From positions 1 through 53,234 of the forward strand of contig JACPKG010000016.1 in assembly GCA_016187175.1 (NCBI GenBank): a stretch of DNA of 53,234 nucleotides, read 5' to 3'. The position numbers and the translations under genes are program-made. This DNA comes from Candidatus Saccharimonadota bacterium (GTDB lineage Bacteria; Patescibacteriota; Saccharimonadia; Saccharimonadales; UBA10212). The notes beneath the pieces are model-generated. The model had not been told where the DNA came from. It was given only the letters and a program-made list of their open reading frames with translations, and did no database searches. Each line of letters begins with the position of its first letter. The first letter of the stretch is position 1. This document shows positions 525-52,678 of this stretch, piece by piece.

Positions 525-983
525 ATGTCTATTATTAACTGTAGGCTTAAGTTAATGTTTTATGTTTTTTTGGCCATTAGTTTGATATTTATCTTTAGCT
601 TGGTTTTTAAGAACCTGTCAAAAAAGCCTTTTTGTTCTCTTTGTGTAGCAGTCGCATCTACTTGGCTGGCCCTGCTGGTTTTATATAAAATCGGCCGTTT
701 TGGCAACCAAGTCCTGCTTGGGCTGCTGGTCGGCCAAAGTACAACTGGTATTTTTTACCTTGCCTATCGGCGTCTGCCCCAAGCCCTGCGTATTTTTAGC
801 TTGCCTTTTTTCTTGTCGCTGACAGCTATCTTCTACGGTCTAATTACAGGCGAAATCCAGCTGTCAGTTTTTATTCTGCTGGTAGTTTTATGGACCTCAG
901 CTTGGGTAGTTTTTACATATCGCAGTGATCCCGGCAAGAAAAAAATCGCTACGATCTTAGCTGAATGCTGCGAGGATAAATGA
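525..983 (+). CDS. small polytopic membrane protein with a CSLC (CxxC) motif and a C-terminal ECCEDK tail
   Basis: Track ORF 171-983 trimmed to ATG 525 (alternative ATG 555), because codons 1-118 are antisense to the ArsR-like gene. Several hydrophobic helices. No family recognised. Confidence 0.5.
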   Translation: MSIINCRLKLMFYVFLAISLIFIFSLVFKNLSKKPFCSLCVAVASTWLALLVLYKIGRFGNQVLLGLLVGQSTTGIFYLAYRRLPQALRIFSLPFFLSLTAIFYGLITGEIQLSVFILLVVLWTSAWVVFTYRSDPGKKKIATILAECCEDK

Positions 984-1025
984 TGATGAATTTTCCCAAG
1001 CCAAGGGTGAGGTTCTAACGGGATG
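980..1025 (+). promoter_or_regulatory. truncated copy (C) of the leader module: mini-uORF MMMNFPKPRVRF-stop, CGGG, then the ATG of ccdA-like
   Basis: AAGCCAAGGGTGAGGTTCTAACGGGATG matches the 3' ends of the elements at 12585-12709 and 24043-24172. The mini-ORF (980/986..1018) overlaps the TGA of the upstream gene and ends 4 nt before ATG 1023. Confidence 0.5.
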
Positions 1026-1898
1026 GAGTTAGTGACCGCCGCATCGTTACTGACCGCCTTCATCGCTGGTATGGCAGCGCTGTTTGCGCCTTGTTGCATA
1101 GGGGTATTGCTGCCGGCCTATTTGGCTTCGATCTTTAAGACCAAGACTAAAATTTTCTTGATGACCTTTGTCTACTTCCTTGGCCTGCTGAGCATCTTTT
1201 TGCCACTGGGACTGGGTGTAGCTAGTCTAGGCAGTTTCTTTAACGATAATCACGGTTTGTTTTTCGCGATTGGCGGCGCTTTTATGCTGCTACTTGGTTT
1301 CTCCATGATACTTGGTAAATCTATTATGCTGCCGATCCATGTTCACCCAAGATTACAAAAATATGATTTTGGTTCGATTTATGTGCTGGGTTTGTTTTCC
1401 GGTGTCGCCACTACTTGTTGCGCACCGGTACTGGCTGGCGTGTTAGCCTTGTCGGTTTTGCCTGGCTCAATCTGGCTTGGCGGTCTGTACGCTCTTACAT
1501 TTGTCGTTGGGATGGTAGTGCCATTATTTATCATGGCCGCTCTGTTAGACCGCAGCCAGGTTCTTGATAAGTTTCGTTCACTTAAGCGCACTGTTAGCTA
1601 TCATCTGCTTGGCCGCCAGATCAAAACCAGCCTGTCGCATTTGATTGCTGGTTCAATATTTACTGTTTTTGGTCTATTTATCCTGATTTACGAACGAGCG
1701 AATCCTGATGTCTTCAGCGCTGGCTATCAGCTAGATATTAATCTATTAGCCGCTCGTATTACCCGATATATTAGCCGCGAGGCGCAGGCGCTACCTGAAT
1801 TTGTGTGGGCGCTATTATTCATGGCTATATTTGCAGCCATTGCTTATGCGGCCTATAGGCAGGCTAAAGCCGAAAAAGTCGAGGACGAGGATCTATGA
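1023..1898 (+). CDS. ccdA: CcdA/DsbD-family transmembrane thiol:disulfide electron transporter
   Basis: 291 aa polytopic protein with two membrane-embedded Cys pairs (LFAPCCIGVLLP and TTCCAPVLAGV), typical of the cytochrome c biogenesis CcdA/DsbD_2 family. Confidence 0.8.
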   Translation: MELVTAASLLTAFIAGMAALFAPCCIGVLLPAYLASIFKTKTKIFLMTFVYFLGLLSIFLPLGLGVASLGSFFNDNHGLFFAIGGAFMLLLGFSMILGKSIMLPIHVHPRLQKYDFGSIYVLGLFSGVATTCCAPVLAGVLALSVLPGSIWLGGLYALTFVVGMVVPLFIMAALLDRSQVLDKFRSLKRTVSYHLLGRQIKTSLSHLIAGSIFTVFGLFILIYERANPDVFSAGYQLDINLLAARITRYISREAQALPEFVWALLFMAIFAAIAYAAYRQAKAEKVEDEDL

Positions 1899-12481: not shown

Positions 12482-12584
12482 ATCTCCTACCCTTAGTTTT
12501 TGATTATTATAACATAATATTGTCTTATAATGCAACCTACCTATTATCTCATACTCCGCTTTAAGTGCTTTGCTCTGCTAAGAT

Positions 12585-12709
12585 TATAGTACGGATGAAT
12601 CCCGTTAGACCTCAGCCTGCAACTTTCACACTAACTTTGCGTTGGATCTGCTTTAAATTGCCAACGATCAACAATTTTTATAAGCCAAGGCTGAGGTTCT
12701 AACGGGATG
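12585..12709 (+). promoter_or_regulatory. leader module copy A: -10 box, near-leaderless 35-codon uORF, and a long-range helix sequestering the SD and AUG of the downstream gene
   Basis: TATAGT at 12585-12590. 12599-12617 (ATCCCGTTAGACCTCAGCC) pairs with 12689-12708 (GGCTGAGGTTCTAACGGGAT, one bulge). The uORF stop at 12700-12702 lies 4 nt before ATG 12707. Confidence 0.6.
12595..12702 (+). CDS. leader peptide MNPVRPQPATFTLTLRWICFKLPTINNFYKPRLRF
   Basis: Same 35-codon length as the copy at 24058-24165. Shares MNPVRPQPA, R..CFKL (with synonymous codon differences) and PRLRF-stop. Confidence 0.5.
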   Translation: MNPVRPQPATFTLTLRWICFKLPTINNFYKPRLRF

Positions 12710-13714
12710 AAAACCATAGGCATATTACTTTTAGCGGTGGTACTGGCCAAGTGTATCTTGCTTTATAAAGCTTCCAAAGCTCTACCGCTGGCTGAACTTC
12801 GCCGACGGGCAAGGGGTGGTGGCGATAAACACACCCAAGCTCTTTATAAAGTATTAGCTTTTCAGTCTTCATTAAAATTTATTATTTGGACGGTCGGAGT
12901 AACTTCTGCCACGATGCTTGTTTTGCTGGCAGCTGATTTTTCTGGCTGGCTAGTTTTAGTATTTATAGCCGCCACCAGCTGGTTGCTTTTAGACGAGCGG
13001 TTTTCTATCCGGACCGGGAACTGGCTGTGGGAAGTTTCGGCCCTTGTGGCCTCGGTGGTTTTGCCAGTTGTCAATTTTTTGCAGCCGGTACTCGTGCGCC
13101 TCGGCGGCCATGTTAGGGGTTTAGAGCGTGGTCATACAGGTATTTACGAGGTTGAAGATTTAATGGATTTTATCGACCGCCAAAGCAGGCAACTGGATAA
13201 CCGTCTTTCGGCCGCTCAACTCCAAAGCGTTCGTAGCGCTCTGAAATTTGCTGACCAAAATATCGGTAGTGTAATGACGCCGCGCAAATCGGTAAAGTGG
13301 GTGGCGGCCAACGAACCTATCGGTCCGACGTTAATGGACGACTTACACAAAACAGGTCATAAGCGTTTTCCAGTTGTGACCGATACCGTTTCTGTTAAGT
13401 CGACAGCACCAAAAATCGTCGGCACGCTTTACCTACGCGATCTTTTAAAAAACCTGGAAAAGCCGGGCACCGCCCAAGATATTATGAAAAAAGACGCCCA
13501 CTTTATTAATGAGTCAAATAGTTTGCGCCAGGCACTGGACGGCTTTGTAAAGTCAGGCCAACATCTGTTGATCGTGGTTAACAACTTTGAGGAAGTAGTA
13601 GGAGTTTTAACTTTAGAAGATGTGCTGGAACAAATATTGGGAGAAAAAATTGCTGATGAATTTGAAAGTTACGATGATTTACGAGCTGTCGCCGGCCACG
13701 AAGCCAAAAAATAA
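12707..13714 (+). CDS. CNNM/CorC-family protein (DUF21 transmembrane domain plus CBS pair), putative Mg2+/Co2+ transport mediator
   Basis: 335 aa with 3-4 N-terminal TM helices, then a tandem CBS region (VMTPRKSVKWV ... HLLIVVNNFEEVVGVLTLEDVLEQILGE). No CorC_HlyC C-terminal domain. Confidence 0.8.
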   Translation: MKTIGILLLAVVLAKCILLYKASKALPLAELRRRARGGGDKHTQALYKVLAFQSSLKFIIWTVGVTSATMLVLLAADFSGWLVLVFIAATSWLLLDERFSIRTGNWLWEVSALVASVVLPVVNFLQPVLVRLGGHVRGLERGHTGIYEVEDLMDFIDRQSRQLDNRLSAAQLQSVRSALKFADQNIGSVMTPRKSVKWVAANEPIGPTLMDDLHKTGHKRFPVVTDTVSVKSTAPKIVGTLYLRDLLKNLEKPGTAQDIMKKDAHFINESNSLRQALDGFVKSGQHLLIVVNNFEEVVGVLTLEDVLEQILGEKIADEFESYDDLRAVAGHEAKK

Positions 13715-14367: not shown

Positions 14368-14530
14368 AAGCGACTTCTCGGCGAGCCACACCGTAAATTG
14401 TTACTTTTCCATTTCTCGTCTTTATCTTTAAGTAGGGAAGAAGCAGACATTGTGTGACGAGGCAGTAGTTACGGTAAATGGAAAATGGGAGAGTCTGGAA
14501 TTCGATAATCCATCTGTTACAATTGTGAGG

Positions 14531-15844
14531 ATGGATAGGATTTTAAGCCGTGATGTGGCGGGTCATGCTGGGAAAAAAGCCACGTTGCAGGGCTGGCTGC
14601 ATAAGAAGCGATTGCTGGGCAGGCTAAACTTTATTTTGCTACGCGACCGCAGTGGCGTGACGCAAATAGTGGTTGAAGACGAGGCCGAAATTAAGAAGCT
14701 TCACGGCCTCCACATTGGTACGGTATTGGTAGTTAGTGGTACTGTTGTTGCCGAAAAGCGGGCTCCGGGTGGAGCTGAAATCCGCGACCCAAAAATCACA
14801 GTCGCAGTACCCGTAACTGACGAACCACCGATTGAAATTGATAAGCCCCTTAGTCACAAATCAGCCAATCTAGACACTCTTTTTGATAACCGCGTTATCG
14901 GCCTACGAAACTTGCGCGAACAAGCTATTTTTAAAGTTCAAGCGGCGGTTAAAGAGGCCATCCGCCAGTACTTGTTTAGCCAGGACTTCGTTGAGTTTAA
15001 CTCGCCCAAACTTTTACCAGGAGCGACGGAAGGCGGGGCAGATGTCTTTAAGCTCGATTATTTTGGTAAAGAAGCTACGCTGGCCCAAAGCGCCCAGTTT
15101 TATAAACAAATCATGGTTGGTGTTTACGAGCGGGCCTTCGAAATCAACCCAACTTACCGCGCCGAGCCTTCGGCTACTACCCGCCACATGACGGAATTCA
15201 TAACAATAGACGTAGAAATGGGCTTTATTGACTTTAATGAATTACTTGACTTGTTAAGTAATTTGCTTAATGTCGTTGTTGACAACGTATGGAAAAATAA
15301 AGCCCAAGAACTCAAACTGTGGGAAGCTAAAAGACCCGTCTTGCCAGCCACAATTCCGACTATGACTATGGCTGAGATCCATGAAAGATACTCCAAAGAT
15401 ACCGGCGAAAATTCGGTAGGCGAAAAAGACCTGCGACCTGACGAGGAGCGCTGGATTTGTGAATACACCGCCAAAAATTTGAAGTCCCAAGCAGTATTTG
15501 TGACGCAGTGGCCGGCCAGCGAAGCCAAATTCTATCACAAGCTTTATGATGATAAGCCGAAGCTGGCGGAACGTTTTGACCTGCTCTTTCGCGGAGTGGA
15601 AATTGCCACCGGCAGCCTGCGCGAACACCGCTACGATAAATTGGTCAAGCAGCTCAAAGACAAAACCGGTAGCGGGCCCGATGCGCCCGGATTCAAATAT
15701 TTCCTGCAAGCGTTTAGGTACGGCATGCCGCCACACGGTGGCTTCGGCATGGGCCTGGAACGCCTAACCGAAAAGATTATTGGCCTTTCAAATGTTAAGG
15801 AAGCAACATTATTCCCAAGGGATATCAACCGCTTGACTCCATAG
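14531..15844 (+). CDS. aspS: aspartate--tRNA ligase, archaeal/eukaryal-type (short, probably non-discriminating)
   Basis: OB-fold N-terminus (ATLQGWLHKKRLLGRLNFILLRDRSGVTQIVV) and class II motifs (FEINPTYRAEPS; GGFGMGLERL). About 437 aa from MDRILS. Confidence 0.9.
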   Translation: MDRILSRDVAGHAGKKATLQGWLHKKRLLGRLNFILLRDRSGVTQIVVEDEAEIKKLHGLHIGTVLVVSGTVVAEKRAPGGAEIRDPKITVAVPVTDEPPIEIDKPLSHKSANLDTLFDNRVIGLRNLREQAIFKVQAAVKEAIRQYLFSQDFVEFNSPKLLPGATEGGADVFKLDYFGKEATLAQSAQFYKQIMVGVYERAFEINPTYRAEPSATTRHMTEFITIDVEMGFIDFNELLDLLSNLLNVVVDNVWKNKAQELKLWEAKRPVLPATIPTMTMAEIHERYSKDTGENSVGEKDLRPDEERWICEYTAKNLKSQAVFVTQWPASEAKFYHKLYDDKPKLAERFDLLFRGVEIATGSLREHRYDKLVKQLKDKTGSGPDAPGFKYFLQAFRYGMPPHGGFGMGLERLTEKIIGLSNVKEATLFPRDINRLTP

Positions 15845-23757: not shown

Positions 23758-23955
23758 ATGGCTTATAAGCATACAAACAGTAAAGGTGTTACATACTACT
23801 TGAACTCTAAGCAAGTCACACTTCGAGGTGGTAAAACTCAAACTATCTATTATTTTTCCAAGGACGAGCGCAGAGATACTGGAACGGATCTGCCATCTGA
23901 CCGCGCAGTCAACGAAAACCCCCGCAATGGTTTTCTTACGCTAAAGCGTAAATAA
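23758..23955 (+). CDS. small basic protein (65 aa)
   Basis: Strong SD, own promoter and own terminator. MAYKHTNSKGVTYYLNSKQVTLRGGKTQTIYYFSKDE. No family named with confidence. Confidence 0.6.
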   Translation: MAYKHTNSKGVTYYLNSKQVTLRGGKTQTIYYFSKDERRDTGTDLPSDRAVNENPRNGFLTLKRK

Positions 23956-23976: not shown

Positions 23977-24005
23977 GAACATCCGCCAGAGGCGGATGTT
24001 CTTTT
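23977..24005 (+). terminator. rho-independent terminator
   Basis: GAACATCCGCC-aga-GGCGGATGTTC followed by TTTT. Confidence 0.8.
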
Positions 24006-24042: not shown

Positions 24043-24172
24043 TATAATTTAGCCAGGATGAATCCCGTTAGACCTCAGCCTGCAATTTCCAAACCCAATT
24101 GGCGTGGGAGTTGTTTTAAACTTCAATCGTTTACTTTTGATCGTCAGCCAAGGTTGAGGTTCTAACGGGATG
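24043..24172 (+). promoter_or_regulatory. leader module copy B upstream of murJ
   Basis: TATAAT at 24043-24048. 24062-24080 (ATCCCGTTAGACCTCAGCC) pairs with 24152-24171 (GGTTGAGGTTCTAACGGGAT, one G-U and one bulge). The uORF stop at 24163-24165 lies 4 nt before ATG 24170. Confidence 0.6.
24058..24165 (+). CDS. leader peptide MNPVRPQPAISKPNWRGSCFKLQSFTFDRQPRLRF
   Basis: 35 codons, parallel to 12595-12702. Confidence 0.5.
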   Translation: MNPVRPQPAISKPNWRGSCFKLQSFTFDRQPRLRF

Positions 24173-25753
24173 AATCGATGGCTTAACCGCGCCAACCAAC
24201 GAATATCTCTTACCGGTGCCGCGGTACTGCTGGTGGTGGCTGCTTTGGTCGGCCAGATGCTGGGTTTTTTACGCACCCAGATCATTAATGGTAACTTTAA
24301 CAGCCCCGGCCATATCACAACTGATGCCTACTTTGCCGCTTTTAAAATTCCTGACTTCTTTTTTTATACCATTGCTGCTGGTGCGTTGGGCGTGGCCTTT
24401 ATGCCGTTTTTGGCTGATAAGCTGGCCGCCGGTGATAAAAAATCCGTTTGGCATTTAACCTCGGGCTTACTTAATCTGCTAGGCCTTTTGATGGTGGGTG
24501 TTGCCATTATCTTGCTTATTTTTACTGAACCCCTGCTAAAAATAGTGGTCGGTAATAACCTGAGTCCAGACCAGATGCACGATGCGGTGACAATCATGCG
24601 AATTGTGGCTCTAAACCCCTTGATCTTCACTATTTCCGGAATTCTTACCAGTTTGCAGCAAACTTTTGGCCGTTTCTTTTTCTTCGCCCTAGCGCCAATT
24701 CTTTATAACGGCTGCATTATTGCCAGCGTCTACATTTTTAAGGACAGTCTAGGTCTGGTTGGCTTGGGTATAGGCGCGCTGGCTGGCGCAGTGCTGCAAC
24801 TGCTGTTTGTCCTGTTGGGACTGGTTGGACTAAACTTCCGCTATATCCCTACTTTTCACTGGCGCAGTCCAGACTTTAGACGTATCTTAAAGCAGCTGCC
24901 GCCGCGTTCAATTGACCAGGGCATTGACTCTATCAACTCGATTGTTGAAACTAACCGCGCCAGCACTCTGGGCCGGGGATTTATTACCTTTTACGAAAAC
25001 GCTTATACTTTGCACCTCGTGCCGATTATGTTAATAGGAACTACTATAGCCACGGCTGCCTTTCCGCGCCTAAACGAACGTTTGGCCCAAGGCCGCCCCG
25101 ACTTATTTAGGCGTGACTTTTTGATGGTGCTACGGGCGATGATCTGGATAATTGCGCCGATAGCTGTAATTTCTTTCTTTGGTCGGGCCTACTTTGCCCG
25201 TTTGATATACAAGAATATAGCGCCGGAAATCGCTATTATCCTTGGCTTTTTGGTAGGGGCAATTGTTTTTAGAACACTTTACGCTATTATTTCCCGCTAT
25301 TTTTATGCCCAAAAAGACACTAAGACGCCGCTGTTTGTCTCCTTGTTCGTGATAGCCCTTAATATATTTCTGGCCTTTCAGCTGGTTAAAATCTACGGCG
25401 TGACCGGCCTGGCGCTGGCGCAGTCAATCGTTGCGGCTGTCGAAGTCTTTATTTTGCTTTTGATTATGGTTTGGCGTGATAAGTTGGTCATCACTGTTGA
25501 TTTTTGGAGCGGTCTTATGCGTACGCTTTCGGTCACCGGTTTTACCATTATTACTACTTACACGCTGGTATCGTTAATTCCGCTGGAGGCTACTGACCGT
25601 GGTTTTATAACATTAAGTTCCAAACTCCTGGCTATTATTTTGCCAACATTTATCGTTCACCTGTCCGTTTCATCGCTGTTTGGTTTAGAGGAAGTCCAGC
25701 CAGTTACCAAAAAGTTGAAACAACTTGCCCTCAAACCCATCAAAATCCAGTAG
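24170..25753 (+). CDS. murJ: lipid II flippase MurJ/MviN
   Basis: 527 aa, about 14 TM helices, MOP-superfamily pattern (LGFLRTQIINGNF...DAYFAAFKIPDFFF). Confidence 0.85.
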   Translation: MNRWLNRANQRISLTGAAVLLVVAALVGQMLGFLRTQIINGNFNSPGHITTDAYFAAFKIPDFFFYTIAAGALGVAFMPFLADKLAAGDKKSVWHLTSGLLNLLGLLMVGVAIILLIFTEPLLKIVVGNNLSPDQMHDAVTIMRIVALNPLIFTISGILTSLQQTFGRFFFFALAPILYNGCIIASVYIFKDSLGLVGLGIGALAGAVLQLLFVLLGLVGLNFRYIPTFHWRSPDFRRILKQLPPRSIDQGIDSINSIVETNRASTLGRGFITFYENAYTLHLVPIMLIGTTIATAAFPRLNERLAQGRPDLFRRDFLMVLRAMIWIIAPIAVISFFGRAYFARLIYKNIAPEIAIILGFLVGAIVFRTLYAIISRYFYAQKDTKTPLFVSLFVIALNIFLAFQLVKIYGVTGLALAQSIVAAVEVFILLLIMVWRDKLVITVDFWSGLMRTLSVTGFTIITTYTLVSLIPLEATDRGFITLSSKLLAIILPTFIVHLSVSSLFGLEEVQPVTKKLKQLALKPIKIQ

Positions 25754-25839
25754 GTGTCCAGTATGGGGTATAAGGTATCAGGTATAATTTTTATACATCA
25801 TACTTAATACCAAATACGTTGTACCTGTTGCGCCTCTGT

Positions 25840-25845
25840 TATAAT
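25840..25845 (+). promoter_or_regulatory. extended -10 box (TGTTATAAT) of lepA
   Basis: The TATAAT ends 9 nt before ATG 25855, so the lepA mRNA would be leaderless or nearly so. Confidence 0.45.
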
Positions 25846-25854
25846 CTGGAGGAT

Positions 25855-27843
25855 ATGGATCAGAGGCTCATTCGGAACTTTTGTATTATTGCGCACATTG
25901 ATCATGGTAAGAGCACGCTGGCTGACCGGTTGCTGGAATTAACCGGTACCGTAGAAAAACGCAACATGAAGGCCCAGATCCTGGACAAAATGGAACTGGA
26001 GCAGGAACGGGGCATCACCATTAAGCTTGCTCCGGTCCGCATGAAATACCGGCCAGCCGTTAACCATTCACCATTAACTGTTCACCATGCATTAACCATT
26101 GGCCATGATCCATTAACCGAAGAAAACGGTAAACGGATAACAGATAACGCATGGAAAACGGAAAACGGTAAAGGGAAAACGGATCAAGTTGAGTATGAAC
26201 TCAACTTGATTGATACTCCCGGTCATGTGGACTTCAGTTACGAGGTCAGCCGCAGCCTGGAAGCCGTCGAAGGTGCGATTTTAGTGGTCGACGCCAGCCA
26301 GGGTGTGCAGGCCCAGACTTTATCAAATATTTATTTGGCGTTAGCAGCTAACCTCAAAATTATTCCGGTGCTGAACAAAATTGATTTGCCGGCCGCAAAC
26401 GTGGAACGGGTTAGTGACGAAGTTATAAAATTACTAGGCTGCCAAAAGGAGGACATTTTACTAATCAGCGCCAAAACCGGTGAGGGGGTGGACCAGGTTT
26501 TGGGACGAGTCGTTGCTGATGTGCCACCGCCATCGGGCAAGGCCGAGGCGCCGACCCGGGCGCTGATTTTTGATAGCTACTATGACGATCACAGAGGAGT
26601 TATTTTGTATGTCAGGCTGGTTGACGGCCGAATTTCCAAGCAGGATTTAATCAAAGTGATGGCTACTGGTGCTCAAGCTACAGCACTGGACGTCGGTTTT
26701 TTGAGCCCGGAAATGAAACCAGCGACGGCTTTGGCGGCTGGAGAAATCGGCTATGTTGTCACCAATCTCAAATCGGCCCGTGAAGCTAAAGTCGGCGACA
26801 CCGTCACCACAGCCAACGACTATAGCGACTATAGGGTCGTACCCTATGACGGTCATAGGGTACGACCCTTAGAAGGGTATAAAGAGGTGCGTCCGTTTGT
26901 CTATGCCGGTTTTTTCCCAAACAGCAACGAAGACTACCAAACTTTTAAGATCGCGGTCGAGAAGTTGTCTTTAAGTGATTCGTCGCTGCAGTACACGTCG
27001 GAAAATTCACCGGTTTTGGGCTTTGGCCTGCGTCTTGGTTTTTTGGGTTTATTACATATGGATATTGTTCGTGAGAGGCTGCAACGAGAGTATGATCTTG
27101 ACCTAATTATCACCAACCCCTCAACTGATTACGAGGTCAGTCTGACCAACGGCCAATTAGTTGATATAAAATCAGCCGCCGACTTGCCGAGTATTAGTAC
27201 AATATCTGAAATTCGTGAGCCGTGGATAAAGGGCGAGATAGCCTGTCCGGCCGTATTTTTGGGTAGCGTTTTAGAGCTAATCAGTAAATCACGAGGGCTT
27301 CATAAACGAATCGAACATATTTCTACGCATTCGACTCCCAAAAATACGGCCGGATCTGACCAAGGTTTAGTAATTATAGATTTCGAAGCGCCACTTACCA
27401 ACTTGATTACCGATTTTTATGACCAACTTAAAAGCATTACTTCCGGCTACGGTTCGTTTAGTTACGAGCTGGCGGATTACCGGGCCGGCGACCTAGTTAA
27501 AGTTGATTTTTATGTCACCGGCGAAAAGGTTGACGCACTGAGTGTTATTGTGCACAAAACCGAGGCCGAACGCGTAGGCCGCCGGGTCGTAGAAAAACTC
27601 AAGGAAGCCATTCCGCGCCAGCAGTTTAAAGTTAGCCTGCAGGCGGCCATCGGTAGCAAATTTATCGCCCGCGAAGACATATCGGCTTACCGCAAAGATG
27701 TTACCGCCAAACTTTACGGCGGCGACGTTACCCGCCGTAAGAAACTTTTGGCCAAGCAAAAAAAGGGCAAAGAGCGCATGAAGCGTTTTGGAAATGTTGA
27801 TGTCCCTGCCGAAGCTTTCACCGTAATGCTGAAACGTGATTAA
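25855..27843 (+). CDS. lepA: translation elongation factor 4 (LepA) carrying in-frame insertions
   Basis: IRNFCIIAHIDHGKSTLADRL, DTPGHVDF, NKIDLP and the LepA-specific C-terminal domain (GDVTRRKKLLAKQKKGKERMK). Start at MDQRLIRNF. Confidence 0.9.
   Translation: MDQRLIRNFCIIAHIDHGKSTLADRLLELTGTVEKRNMKAQILDKMELEQERGITIKLAPVRMKYRPAVNHSPLTVHHALTIGHDPLTEENGKRITDNAWKTENGKGKTDQVEYELNLIDTPGHVDFSYEVSRSLEAVEGAILVVDASQGVQAQTLSNIYLALAANLKIIPVLNKIDLPAANVERVSDEVIKLLGCQKEDILLISAKTGEGVDQVLGRVVADVPPPSGKAEAPTRALIFDSYYDDHRGVILYVRLVDGRISKQDLIKVMATGAQATALDVGFLSPEMKPATALAAGEIGYVVTNLKSAREAKVGDTVTTANDYSDYRVVPYDGHRVRPLEGYKEVRPFVYAGFFPNSNEDYQTFKIAVEKLSLSDSSLQYTSENSPVLGFGLRLGFLGLLHMDIVRERLQREYDLDLIITNPSTDYEVSLTNGQLVDIKSAADLPSISTISEIREPWIKGEIACPAVFLGSVLELISKSRGLHKRIEHISTHSTPKNTAGSDQGLVIIDFEAPLTNLITDFYDQLKSITSGYGSFSYELADYRAGDLVKVDFYVTGEKVDALSVIVHKTEAERVGRRVVEKLKEAIPRQQFKVSLQAAIGSKFIAREDISAYRKDVTAKLYGGDVTRRKKLLAKQKKGKERMKRFGNVDVPAEAFTVMLKRD
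26056..26187. repeat. about 130-nt quasi-palindromic low-complexity insertion, in frame in the LepA G domain
   Basis: The 5' half is CCATTAAC-like repeats and the 3' half is GAAAACGG(T)AAA-like repeats. The halves are roughly complementary (CCATGC/GCATGG, CCGTTAACC/GGAAAACGG). Encodes AVNHSPLTVHHALTIGHDPLTEENGKRITDNAWKTENGKGKTDQ between switch I and DTPGH. Confidence 0.6.
26831..26870. repeat. 40-nt near-perfect palindrome (two AGGGT-NNN-ACCCT units), in frame in lepA
   Basis: ATAGGGTCGTACCCTATGAC-g-GTCATAGGGTACGACCCTT; 19 of 20 positions complementary. Encodes YRVVPYDGHRVRP. Confidence 0.7.
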
Positions 27844-29322: not shown

Positions 29323-30033
29323 ATGACCGAAAGACAAGGTAAATTACTTCAAGCTATAGTCGAGCAATATGCCGAGGTAGCCAGTCCGGTGGGCAGCAGC
29401 CTACTGGCCAAGGTGTTCGATGTTTCCAGTGCCACCATCCGGGCCGAAATGGCCGATCTGGAACGCAGTGGCTACATCATGCAGCCGCACACTAGCGCTG
29501 GCCGTATTCCAACCGACAGGGGCTATCGTTACTACGTCAACCAGCTGGCCCAGCTAGGAGAGAAAGCAAAACCACGTGCCGAGCGCGCCGAACAGGCGTT
29601 GGCAGCCAGGGTAGCAGGTGGTGGATTACCGGAACGGACTATCCGCAACGCTGTAGACACACTGGTTGAACTGACCCATAATTTGGGACTGGCGACGATT
29701 GGTGAACAGCTTTATATAAGCGGCCTGTCCAATCTGTTTGGCCAGCCGGAATTCATACACCCGGGGCAGGTCCAGGAGGTTGCGAGGCTTCTGGACAATC
29801 TAGAACCGTGGCTATATGAAGCTGCGCCCAACCAACCGTTAAGCGTTTATATCGGCCGGGAGAACCCCATTGGTAGCACCGCTGGCTGCAGTCTAATTAT
29901 CAGCCGTTTCCGCAGTCCGTTTTCCGACCGTAGCTACATCGGTACGCTGGGACCAACCCGCCAAAGTTATCGTGAGGTTATGGCCCTGGTTGGCCGTGCC
30001 GGCCAAGCTTTGGAGGAGACAATTTATGTCTAG
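29323..30033 (+). CDS. hrcA: heat-inducible transcription repressor HrcA (short form)
   Basis: MTERQGKLLQAIVEQYAEVASPVGSSLLAK...SSATIRAEMADLERSGYIMQPHTSAGRIPTDRGYRYYV is the canonical HrcA wHTH. 236 aa, shorter than the roughly 340 aa typical length. Confidence 0.85.
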   Translation: MTERQGKLLQAIVEQYAEVASPVGSSLLAKVFDVSSATIRAEMADLERSGYIMQPHTSAGRIPTDRGYRYYVNQLAQLGEKAKPRAERAEQALAARVAGGGLPERTIRNAVDTLVELTHNLGLATIGEQLYISGLSNLFGQPEFIHPGQVQEVARLLDNLEPWLYEAAPNQPLSVYIGRENPIGSTAGCSLIISRFRSPFSDRSYIGTLGPTRQSYREVMALVGRAGQALEETIYV

Positions 30034-41618: not shown

Positions 41619-41695
41619 ATGGAGGGCCCAGTGGGATTCGAACCCACGACACGCGGCTTAAAAGGCCGCTGCTCTGACCAGCTGAGCTATGGGCC
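41619..41695 (-). tRNA. tRNA-Lys (anticodon TTT), CCA encoded
   Basis: Hand-folded from the reverse complement: GGGCCCA-TA-GCTC-AGCTGGTCA-GAGC-A-GCGGC-CTTTTAA-GCCGC-GTGTC-GTGGG-TTCGAAT-CCCAC-TGGGCCC-T-CCA. 77 nt. Confidence 0.9.
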
Positions 41696-41884
41696 CGCAG
41701 CGCCCCGACACTGTCGGGGCGCTAATGGCGCTAATAATTCGGCTCCGGAGCTGAATTAACCCCTGATATTATCCTTTTTTTGACTAAAAAAATCAACGAG
41801 TTCATCAACTCCCTGGTTTGTATCTCGGTGACTTAAAAAACGCAAGCAATTAACTTCTTGTCTCTCATATGCCATTATGGCGAA

Positions 41885-50330: not shown

Positions 50331-52031
50331 ATGAGCTCTAGCTTTCCCAAGTCTAAATGCTTTGTTTATCTTAGACGCTCACAAGACCGAGAGGATAGAC
50401 AGGCGTATTCGCTTGAAAAACAAGATCAGCAAGTTCGGCAAATCATTACAGATAATAACTATGTAGCTATCCATTTACCGCCAGAAGAAAGGTCGGCCAG
50501 GTACTTAGGTCGTCCGATATTCAATGATATGTTAGAACGCATCGAAAAAGGCGAAGCTAGATATATAGCCGTGTGGCAACTTAGCCGATTAAGCCGCAAT
50601 CCCATAGATGCAGGTAGGATCATCTACATGCTAGACCAAGGTTCTTTATTAGCTATACATACACCCACTAGAACCTACCGCAACACCCCAGATGATAAGG
50701 CATTCTTAGCTATAGAACTTGCGTTTGCTAAAAAGAATAATGATGACCTGAGCGTCCAAGTGAAAGAAAGTTTTGAGCAAAAGCGCAATCATGGTGAATA
50801 TCCTGGTCCTGCACCGCTCGGGTATTACAACGCTATTATAAGTCCAGGCCATCGTAACATAGTGCCTCATCAAGAAAACGCACAAAAAATTATTAGGCTT
50901 TTTCAAAAAGCTGCCAGCGAATGCTATACACTTCACGATATTTGGCTTGAGACAGAAAAGCTAGGTTTGCGGTCCAAAAATGGCTTGCCTCTAGCGAAAC
51001 AAACTGTGGTTGGCATTTTGAAAAACAGAGTTTATACAGGCGTTTTTAAGTATGGTAGCCCCGAGTATCATCAAGGAGCATATGAGCCCCTGATTAGTAT
51101 TGAGATTTATAATAAAGTGCAACAAGTTATGGGCTGGGCGCATAAGCGTAATGTACCCCATACCACAGCAGGACGATCATATCCTTATAAGGGCCTACTG
51201 CTTTGTGGCACATGCAATTTCAACATAACAGCCTATACTAAGCCAAAAACCCTATCCAATGGCTCAGAAGCATATTATGAGTTTTATACCTGCACCAAAA
51301 AGAGCAAGACAGTTAAGTGCACTGAGTCTCAGATCTCTGCTAAAGAATTGGAAGAAGCGATCAAGTCCAAAATGTCAGAGTTCGAAATAAGTGAAGAAGA
51401 CGGTAAGACTTGCCTGCGGTTAATTGAGGGGCTTTTTGACAGCCACATAAAAAATCAGCAACGATACCGTGAAATATGGGAAAAAGACCGTAGAGACGCA
51501 AAAAAAGCACTTGAGGTGCTTGATGAAAAGCTTGAAACAGGCGTTATCGAAGATGAAAGATATAAGAGCCGTAGTAATCGCCATCGGGCGGTGCTGGCTA
51601 GAACTACGCAACTGCTTGAAAGTTCTTATCAAGACGCCGAACGCTGGCTAGAACTAGCAACGGAGGTATTTTCAAGTGTTACTAACCTAGGTGTAGTCTT
51701 TGAACAAGCTGAGGATACAGAACGGCGTGAACTTATGAAGTATTTAGGTTTGAACTGGACTTTAAGTGATAGAAAAGTGGCTCTAACACCTAGAGAACCA
51801 CTACATTTGTTACATATCAGCAATCGAAATCAATCTTGGCGGGGCGGGCAGGATTCGAACCTGCGGCCAATCGGTTATGAGCCGACTGCTCTAACCACTG
51901 AGCTACCGCCCCTCGTCGTCCGCCTAGGCGGACTCCTCTTCAATTTTACAAGTTCTGCTACGCACGACCTTGTAAAATTGGTAAAAGAACAGTATAAACC
52001 CAAGTATAACAGATGTATGAGATATAATTAG
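50331..52031 (+). CDS. large serine recombinase (resolvase domain, recombinase domain, zinc ribbon, coiled coil); the 3' end of the ORF runs antisense through tRNA-Met
   Basis: CFVYLRRSQDREDRQAYSLEKQ (catalytic Ser region), IAVWQLSRLSRN, YPGPAPLGY, and the Cys cluster CGTCNFNI...YTCTKKSKTVKC. No stop until 52031, although recognisable recombinase sequence ends near 51830. Confidence 0.8.
   Translation: MSSSFPKSKCFVYLRRSQDREDRQAYSLEKQDQQVRQIITDNNYVAIHLPPEERSARYLGRPIFNDMLERIEKGEARYIAVWQLSRLSRNPIDAGRIIYMLDQGSLLAIHTPTRTYRNTPDDKAFLAIELAFAKKNNDDLSVQVKESFEQKRNHGEYPGPAPLGYYNAIISPGHRNIVPHQENAQKIIRLFQKAASECYTLHDIWLETEKLGLRSKNGLPLAKQTVVGILKNRVYTGVFKYGSPEYHQGAYEPLISIEIYNKVQQVMGWAHKRNVPHTTAGRSYPYKGLLLCGTCNFNITAYTKPKTLSNGSEAYYEFYTCTKKSKTVKCTESQISAKELEEAIKSKMSEFEISEEDGKTCLRLIEGLFDSHIKNQQRYREIWEKDRRDAKKALEVLDEKLETGVIEDERYKSRSNRHRAVLARTTQLLESSYQDAERWLELATEVFSSVTNLGVVFEQAEDTERRELMKYLGLNWTLSDRKVALTPREPLHLLHISNRNQSWRGGQDSNLRPIGYEPTALTTELPPLVVRLGGLLFNFTSSATHDLVKLVKEQYKPKYNRCMRYN
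51837..51912 (-). tRNA. tRNA with CAT anticodon (elongator Met or Ile2), CCA encoded
   Basis: Hand-folded from the reverse complement: GGGGCGG-TA-GCTC-AGTGGTTA-GAGC-A-GTCGG-CTCATAA-CCGAT-TGGCC-GCAGG-TTCGAAT-CCTGC-CCGCCCC-G-CCA. 76 nt. Confidence 0.85.
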
Positions 52032-52603: not shown

Positions 52604-52678
52604 CGCGGGGTGGAGCAGTAGTAGCTCGCGTGGCTCATAACCACGAGGTCGCAGGTGCAAATCCTGCCCCCGCTACCA
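52604..52678 (+). tRNA. initiator tRNA-fMet (CAT), CCA encoded, atypical T-loop
   Basis: CGCGGGG-TG-GAGC-AGTAGTA-GCTC-G-CGTGG-CTCATAA-CCACG-AGGTC-GCAGG-TGCAAAT-CCTGC-CCCCGCT-A-CCA. 1:72 mismatch and close to E. coli tRNAfMet as I recall it. The T-loop reads TGC instead of the usual TTC. Confidence 0.8.

Follow-up and report, generated by a model that had tools for sequence, protein, structure and literature searches.

A palindromic, start-codon-inserting candidate mobile element of Patescibacteria with a proposed translation-restart module

The described systems closest to the element reported here are short palindromic repeats of bacteria. MITEs, or miniature inverted-repeat transposable elements, such as Correia/NEMIS, ERIC, RUP and Nezha, are short, non-coding, multicopy sequences with terminal inverted repeats (TIRs) and a short target duplication; their sites are found both filled and empty, and the elements form a long hairpin when transcribed and can alter the neighbouring gene. 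Rickettsia palindromic elements (RPEs), which are likewise palindromic and selfish, reportedly lie inside protein-coding genes without inactivating them and are read in frame as part of the protein. REPINs are hairpin doublets of about 100 nt with conserved ends and long persistence, and are said to depend on an enzyme supplied in trans (RAYT). Here we analyse a 53,234-nt stretch of DNA, referred to as the window, from a Candidatus Saccharimonadota bacterium (assembly GCA_016187175.1, contig JACPKG010000016.1, positions 1 to 53,234 of the forward strand), which carries two full copies, A and B, of a palindromic element lying across gene start codons. In the account that we moderately favour, these are resident copies of a mobile element of approximately 100–120 bp that inserts at start codons and keeps the gene translatable by means of an upstream open reading frame (uORF) and a translational restart.

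The element apparently represents an undescribed, start-codon-targeting class of palindromic mobile DNA with a restart module, widespread in the Candidate Phyla Radiation (CPR). No description of it was found in the literature, in searches that included the terminal sequences as text.

Two full copies in the window

Copy A comprises the following features, which were assigned by direct reading, comparison of the flanks, folding and a covariance model.

12595–12702, plus strand: uORF of 35 codons plus TAA, read directly; encoded peptide MNPVRPQPATFTLTLRWICFKLPTINNFYKPRLRF
12600–12707, plus strand: element proper, from TIR to TIR (TCCCGTTAGA ... TCTAACGGGA), 108 nt; covariance model score 103 bits
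12595–12599, plus strand: left direct repeat ATGAA, the putative original start codon and the 2 nt after it, which now open the uORF (flank comparison)
12707–12711, plus strand: right direct repeat ATGAA, with which the host gene begins (flank comparison)
12599–12617, plus strand: 5' helix arm, uORF codons 2–8 (fold)
12689–12708, plus strand: 3' helix arm, with the Shine–Dalgarno (SD) sequence GAGG at 12693–12696, TAA at 12700–12702 and the first bases of the main ATG (fold)
12579–12590, plus strand: two overlapping -10-like hexamers, TAAGAT (12579–12584) and TATAGT (12585–12590), a putative near-leaderless promoter
12707–13714, plus strand: host gene, for a CBS-domain membrane protein whose resemblance to CNNM/CorC is one of architecture only

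The uORF opens at the ATG at 12595 and closes at the TAA at 12700–12702, which a CGGG spacer separates from the main ATG at 12707. The predicted fold is a 19-bp helix (12599–12617 paired with 12689–12708, one bulged base) with a minimum free energy of -43.8 kcal/mol, against -22.9 ± 3.8 kcal/mol for shuffled sequences (z-score of -5.6). Reading and folding confirm the layout on which an earlier, sequence-only reading had been built: a 35-codon uORF, a UAA 4 nt before the ATG, and a 19-bp helix that masks the SD and the main AUG. No alternative helix appears in the fold, no T tract follows the helix, and a terminator scan called no terminator-like site; an intrinsic terminator was ruled out by the missing 3' T tract and the empty scan. 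The sequence-only reading had also named the host gene CNNM/CorC-like. Its CBS domains and architecture agree with that description, but Pfam did not detect a DUF21/CNNM domain in the protein. A relatives search with the CBS-domain host protein found no confirmed relative, and among the loci compared the orthologue of the host gene in locus L014 likewise carries the element.

Copy B lies upstream of a MurJ gene.

24058–24165, plus strand: uORF of 35 codons plus TAA, with the left repeat ATGAA at 24058–24062
24063–24170, plus strand: element proper, from TIR to TIR, with SD GAGG at 24156–24159 and TAA at 24163–24165; covariance model score 94 bits
24170–25753, plus strand: host gene, MurJ lipid II flippase, with the right repeat ATGAA at 24170–24174
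24043–24048, plus strand: TATAAT hexamer, 9 nt upstream of the uORF ATG; read by eye and not called by the promoter scan, which needs a -35 hexamer

The codon count and spacing of copy B, over 24058–24172, are those of copy A, as had been claimed. Its predicted fold reaches -50.6 kcal/mol (z-score of -6.5), and the orthologue of its host gene in locus L003 also carries the element. An arm difference from copy A had been described as the conversion of a G-C pair to G-U; the C-to-T change in the 3' arm is real, but it is not evidence of compensation, most family members having a G at this position and hence a G.G mismatch. Within the window the 3' 26-mer of the element occurs three times and the 5' 30-mer twice, with none expected. 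A covariance model built from relatives recovered, in a search of the window, copy A at 103 bits, copy B at 94 bits, a third copy, C, weakly (14.9 bits, E-value of 0.05, 924–1025), and nothing else.

A family with conserved termini across Patescibacteria

Species-representative genomes, one per species, were scanned with the 3' 18-mer of the element and with a gapped pattern consisting of the two 9–10-nt termini, in which no ATG was required. The 18-mer was found at 23 loci, nearly all in metagenome-assembled genomes (MAGs) of Saccharibacteria and several per genome, and the ATG-free pattern in at least 119 stretches, mostly of Patescibacteria. Among the matches listed, the Patescibacteria groups include Saccharibacteria, Paceibacteria, Kaiser-, Nomura-, Wolfe-, Yanofsky-, Jorgensen-, Levyi- and Moranbacteria and others; those from outside the CPR carry the labels Omnitrophota, Planctomycetota/Sedimentisphaerales, Elusimicrobia, WOR-3 and, for a few MAGs, Proteobacteria. 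Some of the non-CPR labels may be binning errors, for example that of a 'Binatia' contig (L021) which mirrors a Patescibacteria contig (L022). A scan of viral contigs gave only two matches, and copy A had no blastn match to annotated plasmids and phages.

From the matches listed in the pattern searches, 159 elements were examined, and uORF and folding tests were made on 109 copies. The elements are 97–121 nt long, apart from one 79-nt copy (L067). Their termini, TCCCGTTAGA and TCTAACGGGA, are invariant or nearly so, although 18 of the 20 positions were preset by the search patterns and only pair 1 (3' A, 93% T-A) and pair 7 (98%) are informative. The arm positions 11–13, which were not selected by the patterns, co-vary: Watson–Crick pairing is 0.86, 0.92 and 0.79, compared with 0.43, 0.36 and 0.44 in shuffled pairings, with at least three pair types at each position. 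In most families a bulge follows these positions. The last base of the element is the A of an ATG in 144 of the 159 elements, and 129 of these ATGs open an ORF of at least 50 aa.

The major CPR subfamily (L110, L109, L047, L088 and 30 other loci) has the 5' arm TCCCGTTAGA-NN-YCGCGGTCGC and the 3' arm GACCGCGACCTG-NN-TCTAACGGGA, which enclose a conserved asymmetric 3x1 internal loop and share a direct CCGCGRYC motif. A GGAGG-like tract often lies 35–45 nt before the main ATG, and all gene-associated copies of this subfamily have a single orientation (38:0). Two families of Saccharibacteria (ii and iii) are reverse complements of each other, that is, one family present in both orientations relative to its host genes.

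The host genes are unrelated and of housekeeping type, encoding AspRS, L31, frr, TruB, DnaG, FtsH, MurB, MurJ, ATP synthase gamma (atpG) and others. In the window the three hosts are indeed a CBS-domain transmembrane protein, MurJ and a DsbD_TM-like protein, which had led the sequence-only reading to link the element to polytopic membrane proteins; the link does not extend to the family. Its statement that the leader belongs to no named riboswitch or leader family stands. No Rfam family was matched by copy A, for which hits at E-values up to 10 were noise only, or by 12 loci of other subfamilies, which gave one tRNA only; at the gathering threshold, the only Rfam matches of the window are three tRNA genes (41623–41696 and 51840–51912 on the minus strand, and 52604–52675 on the plus strand).

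Some loci depart from this anatomy. In an Omnitrophota MAG (L002, about 2590–2700; L005, about 530–640, minus strand), the 5' arm of a full element harbours a 33-nt mini-palindrome consisting of the termini only (CCCCGTTAGAAAT-TAC-ATTTCTAACGGGG), and in L002 the element is directly followed by another 5' end. Variants of approximately 85 nt with a mutated left terminus (TCCCGTTATTAGA, TCCCTTTAGA) lie on start codons at L009 (6478–6560) and L010 (365–450, minus strand), so the strict pattern counts underestimate the copy number.

Insertion at start codons with a 5-nt duplication

The sequences flanking the element are matched over exactly 5 nt, with the consensus ATGRR. Left and right flanks are identical at these five positions with frequencies of 0.86, 0.86, 0.81, 0.88 and 0.84, compared with 0.22–0.29 outside them. 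Rare flanks co-vary, as ATGCG/ATGCG, ATGCC/ATGCC, ATGAT/ATGAT, ATAAA/ATAAA and ACGAG/ACGAG; cases of GTGAA/ATGAA also exist, and position 1 is either duplicated or supplied by the terminal repeat. Tandem copies have one ATGAA in common. Two purines follow the ATG at 91.5% of the starts that bear an element, whereas the figure for ordinary long ORFs of these loci is 41% (p = 4e-33); at the element-bearing starts these two bases are never GG, and AA is commoner than GA or AG.

Comparison by tblastn among the loci yielded five filled/empty pairs of orthologous genes, atpG among them, in which the empty site has a single ATGRR. Of the L31 genes, that of L015 carries the element and that of L010 does not, the same promoter-like AAAAAGTTATACT lying upstream of both. 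The AspRS gene is filled in L001, with ATGGA/ATGGA flanks, and is empty in L014 and in the window itself:

14531–14535, plus strand: empty site, AspRS start ATGGA, preceded by TACAAT plus 7 nt (leaderless-type); the listed ORF is 14450–15844

In the ATP synthase cluster, L017 carries the element at two genes whose L137 counterparts are empty, and for a third gene the situation is reversed. Near-identical copies also stand before different genes of one genome, as in a 98.3%-identical pair in L104. Two copies in L110 are 95.5% identical, and the MAG also holds, in L123, a 91% relative with the different flank ATGCG.

On the 5-nt repeat, the filled and empty orthologues and the near-identical copies before different genes, the element appears to be, or to have been, mobile and MITE-like. 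Four of five features by which MITEs are recognised were found: a short sequence without a transposition gene, terminal inverted repeats, a duplication of fixed length (5 nt), and many copies with filled and empty sites. The comparisons thus point to a non-autonomous, start-codon-targeting MITE-like element. The sequence-only reading had opposed its regulatory proposal to a plain MITE with randomly placed copies; target-site duplications and presence/absence polymorphism were indeed found, but the positions are non-random and fall on start codons.

Two other modes of insertion were considered. Insertion of the IS200/IS605 type, 3' of a pentanucleotide and with the right-end copy belonging to the element, was judged less likely, because one genome has copies 91% similar to each other whose matched flanks differ (ATGAA and ATGCG). 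A serine-recombinase 2-nt crossover was judged unlikely, as flank positions 4 and 5 both co-vary.

Upstream reading frame, stop placement and promoters

The uORF is open up to a TAA at position -7, or up to a TGA at +1 that overlaps the main start as ATGA, in 53 of the 109 copies, compared with 11.2 ± 3.1 when the middles are shuffled (maximum of 20 in 500 trials). The test for stop-free frames, like the shuffling, was restricted to the middle of the element, because the terminal repeat itself has stops in the other frames. The middle is free of stops in the uORF frame in 54 copies and in the other two frames in 10 and 9. Almost all copies of the Saccharibacteria have an open frame in the orientation in which they reside, and in the opposite reading the frame is mostly closed, even though the same family exists in both orientations.

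Length and flank co-vary such that a stop is available at the main ATG: all nine copies of length 105 have ATGA(A/G), which uses the TGA overlap, and five of the seven copies of length 104 have ATGGA or ATGCA, which use the TAA. Copies of a length (1 modulo 3) by which the uORF would be joined in frame with the host gene are under-represented (18 of 109), and an internal stop blocks the fusion in 17 of these 18; the exception is the 79-nt copy, in which the stretch read has no stop. The open frame and the co-variation of length and flank are what would be expected from selection for termination beside the main start codon. In this comparative sense they support the earlier proposal that uORF translation melts the helix and hands ribosomes on by termination and re-initiation.

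Conservation of the encoded peptide, which had been argued from a shared R..CFKL in copies A and B, was not found; the resemblance reflects the sequence similarity of the family. Codon-position entropy in the uORF middle is flat (0.77, 0.81 and 0.80), and the uORF frame has a synonymous fraction of 0.158, compared with 0.170 and 0.148 for the shifted frames. Orthologous uORFs differ by two synonymous and seven nonsynonymous codons for copy A, and by none and 17 for copy B. The peptide matches no Pfam or NCBIfam family. These four results ruled out a peptide function.

The same results bear on the regulatory model of the sequence-only reading, in which the element is a Mg2+- and proline-sensing leader, akin to mgtL/mgtA of Salmonella, controlling Mg2+/Co2+ transport and membrane genes. 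A uORF and an SD-sequestering helix are present as that model asks, the peptide begins MNPVRPQP, and copy A precedes a CBS-domain membrane protein. The proline codons, however, are encoded by the terminal repeat and the arm, in a peptide that lacks coding-type conservation; neither an alternative helix nor a terminator was found; orthologues of the host genes do without the element; and no DUF21/CNNM domain was detected in the host protein. With the same element before AspRS, L31, frr, TruB, DnaG, MurB, FtsH, atpG and other genes, the model is already largely refuted by the distribution of the element, and we find it hardly credible.

Hexamers resembling a -10 box peak at 6–7 and 9 nt before the 5' ATG, in 33 of the 109 copies, and this proximity indicates that many hosts are leaderless genes. 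In other hosts the start is preceded by an ordinary SD or overlaps the upstream gene as ATGA. The TATAGT box that had been noted before the uORF of copy A is present, but the orthologue in L014 conserves the other hexamer, TAAGAT (10 nt upstream of the uORF), and not TATAGT.

A promoter could instead face outward from the A+T-rich middle of the element, so that the mRNA would lack the 5' arm and both helix and uORF would be irrelevant to expression. Promoters facing outward are a known feature of other MITEs and insertion sequences of bacteria, for example of Correia elements, and copy A and several relatives do have TATAAG-like hexamers some 20 nt ahead of the SD. In copy B, however, this hexamer is absent (CGTCAG), and an outward promoter leaves the open uORF frames, the placement of the stop and the conserved 5' arm unaccounted for; we consider it improbable.

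Conservation of the arms in resident copies

In five pairs of orthologous genes that are both filled, the arms are identical at 264 of 294 positions (90%) and the middles at 179 of 255 (70%), whereas four-fold sites of the host genes are saturated, at 242 of 584 (41%). Copy A is 90.7% identical to its orthologue in L014, while the coding DNA of the window is about 72–74% identical to that of its closest relative among the loci compared. Such conservation suggests that the arms have retained a function. Concerted evolution or gene conversion was ruled out as its cause: no paralogue is as similar to copy A as its orthologue is, and two paralogues from one genome resemble each other no more than do paralogues from different genomes. 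On the sense strand, G.U pairs outnumber A.C pairs (311:237), and the sense-strand fold is the more stable one in 70 of the 109 copies. A consensus inner structure was sought in the middle of the window's family and none was detected.

Either the hairpin has a role for the host, as a gate, a 5' stabiliser or a protein-binding site, or arm mutations are harmful by unbalancing the restart. The first option leads to an alternative in which once-mobile DNA is now kept by the host as a cis-acting RNA device (a stabilising 5' hairpin, a kinetic gate or a protein site), forming a dispersed regulon of a few per cent of genes. The high identity of the arms beside saturated four-fold sites, the excess of copy A over its coding surroundings, the missing homogenisation and the G.U bias of the sense strand would all follow from such an exaptation, as would the 38:0 orientation and conserved asymmetric loop of the major CPR subfamily. 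Against this, the host genes have no common function and their orthologues do well without the element; the near-identical, recent copies indicate ongoing spread rather than an old, fixed regulon; no conserved inner structure was detected in the middle; and no ligand-like pocket or Rfam relative was found. We regard an exapted regulator as unlikely, but as an explanation to be taken seriously.

Proposed mechanism

In the favoured account of copies A and B, insertion at the start codon of a gene would duplicate 5 bp (ATGRR). The original start codon would keep its own promoter, often of the leaderless type, or its own SD, and would now open the uORF into the element. The 3' terminal repeat TCTAACGGGA would supply a stop beside the duplicated ATG, either TAA at -7 or TGA overlapping ATGA, and in the window's family it would also supply the SD (GAGG). 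The two arms are predicted to form a long helix that buries this SD and the main AUG. Translation of the uORF, which would be easiest on the nascent transcript while the 3' arm has yet to be made, would hold the helix open or push it apart; the ribosomes would stop 4 nt short of the main AUG, or in overlap with it, and re-initiate, so that the gene would not be killed. The host gene is thus probably still translated despite the insertion. We infer uORF translation, restart and kinetic (co-transcriptional) gating, and likewise the kind of transposase.

Several observations weigh against this account. An internal stop interrupts the uORF in about half of all copies, mostly from outside the Saccharibacteria, and in many families the 3' arm has no SD, so restart at the end of the uORF cannot be a universal route. 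In copy A, neither TAAGAT nor TATAGT was called by the -35/-10 promoter scan. With the helix beginning 4 nt past the uORF AUG, a folded mRNA should impede initiation, which is why loading on the nascent transcript, ahead of the 3' arm, is proposed. No longer element with the same termini, autonomous partner or transposase was found in 143 loci. Finally, an insertion that is merely tolerated explains neither the 38:0 orientation nor the strong conservation of the arms in old copies.

The copies with internal stops and no SD, many of which are non-Saccharibacterial and yet stand before essential genes, could be accommodated if the element were skipped or removed, either by excision of the hairpin from the RNA and rejoining, or by an initiating ribosome that slides or hops from the first AUG, over the base of the folded hairpin, to the identical second one, in the manner of T4 gene 60 or the mitochondrial byp elements. 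Identical AUGRR sequences do flank the base of the helix, and an SD-like GAGG lies 5' of the second AUG. Skipping gives no reason, however, for an open uORF frame or for the co-variation of length and flank that places the stop at the main ATG, and no ribozyme family was matched. To our knowledge, no bacterial machinery excises and ligates such hairpins, and we consider this explanation very improbable.

Starting again from the favoured account, insertion followed by termination and restart, a bolder version can be formulated, which we hold tentatively as quite possible rather than probable. The elements would constitute a pan-CPR class of mobile hairpins that home to ATGRR, are moved by an undescribed enzyme and carry a symmetric stop-(SD)-ATG restart module. 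They would have been co-opted as a genome-wide translational gate, because the arms stay under strong purifying selection in old resident copies, and for a few per cent of genes, many of which would be leaderless, translation would be confined to ribosomes loading on the nascent transcript.

Copy C and other features of the window

The third copy, which had been described as truncated, is a remnant of the 3' end.

about 990–1025, plus strand: copy C, 3' remnant, with SD GAGG at 1009–1012, TAA at 1016–1018, TCTAACGGGA at 1014–1023 and ATG at 1023–1025
1023–1898, plus strand: host gene of copy C, a DsbD_TM-like membrane protein

The remnant has no 5' arm and forms no helix (fold z-score of +0.4). 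A 12-codon mini-ORF (980–1018) overlaps the stop of the upstream gene (ATGA) and ends at the TAA of the element. The last codons of the upstream ORF 171–983 (..AGT GAT CCC GGC AAG A..) resemble the 5' end of the element (ATG GAT CCC GTT AGA). Copy C may be a decayed full copy, the 5' half of which, back to about 924, was absorbed into the reading frame of ORF 171–983.

Upstream of copy B, a 65-aa ORF (23758–23955) lies within a block that is 81% identical to L003. On its 3' side, a terminator-like hairpin, GAACATCCGCC-AGA-GGCGGATGTTC followed by TTTT, occupies 23977–24005; the scan did not call it.

Three further inverted repeats are present in the window. The repeat 29243–29261/29314–29332 is unrelated to the element and has 19-nt arms that are 79% complementary; its 3' arm covers the ATG at 29323 of ORF 29323–30033, and it is possibly another hairpin that masks a start codon. 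The repeat 3120–3142/3270–3292 (23-nt arms, 96% complementary) lies between convergent genes, and the repeat 27246–27263/27337–27354 (18-nt perfect arms) lies inside ORF 25819–27843; both are strong repeats, and neither has the termini of the element.

Implications and comparison with known systems

If the proposed account is correct, the element is mobile DNA whose niche is the start codon and which survives in very compact genomes by rebuilding the translation start that it interrupts. The uORFs, and the true gene starts behind them, are easily miscalled in the annotation of thousands of CPR genomes. The filled genes are naturally occurring cases in which leaderless translation and re-initiation of CPR bacteria could be tested, and the terminal repeat is a compact, portable cassette coupling stop, SD and ATG. 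The unusual ATGRR specificity and the fixed orientation in the main family imply an undescribed enzyme, and the conservation of the arms, well above the neutral expectation, raises the question of a selfish element as opposed to a dispersed regulator.

The element differs from the bacterial MITEs in being inserted at a start codon (ATGRR) in about 90% of copies, in providing a stop beside the duplicated ATG (together with an SD in this family), in its open upstream frame, and in termini that are conserved across phyla. We know of no parent insertion sequence. Whereas RPEs are translated as part of the host protein, this element avoids in-frame fusion (17 of 18 copies of in-frame length) and separates the uORF from an intact host ORF by a stop and a proposed restart. 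The conservation of its arms recalls REPINs. These are extragenic and lack a target-site duplication, however, and the 5-nt duplication and start-codon position place the element outside that class.

Leaders of the mgtL/mgtA type in Salmonella also have a short upstream ORF, the translation of which decides the fate of a downstream helix. The present element is dispersed and mobile, and no alternative helices, terminator, conserved peptide or Mg2+ link were found in the copies analysed. In the T4 gene 60 hop and the mitochondrial byp elements of Magnusiomyces, an insert in a coding region is neutralised at translation between matched take-off and landing codons on its two sides. The insert here lies at codon 2 rather than inside the ORF, and the comparative evidence favours termination and re-initiation over hopping. 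Start gating on nascent RNA has its precedent in the MS2 maturation gene and hok mRNA, where long-range pairing closes the start site unless ribosomes act before it has formed.

The integron attC site is similar in outline, being an imperfect hairpin of 60–140 nt with the same pair of heptamers (GTTAGAA/TTCTAAC) and conserved unpaired bases. The attC consensus reads 5'-RYYYAAC ... GTTRRRY-3' (R'' and R' boxes). An attC identity was ruled out, as the order of the boxes is inverted here, 5'-GTTAGA...TCTAAC-3' on both strands. In contrast to attC, the element has no cassette array or integrase context, and it is bounded by a 5-nt duplication.

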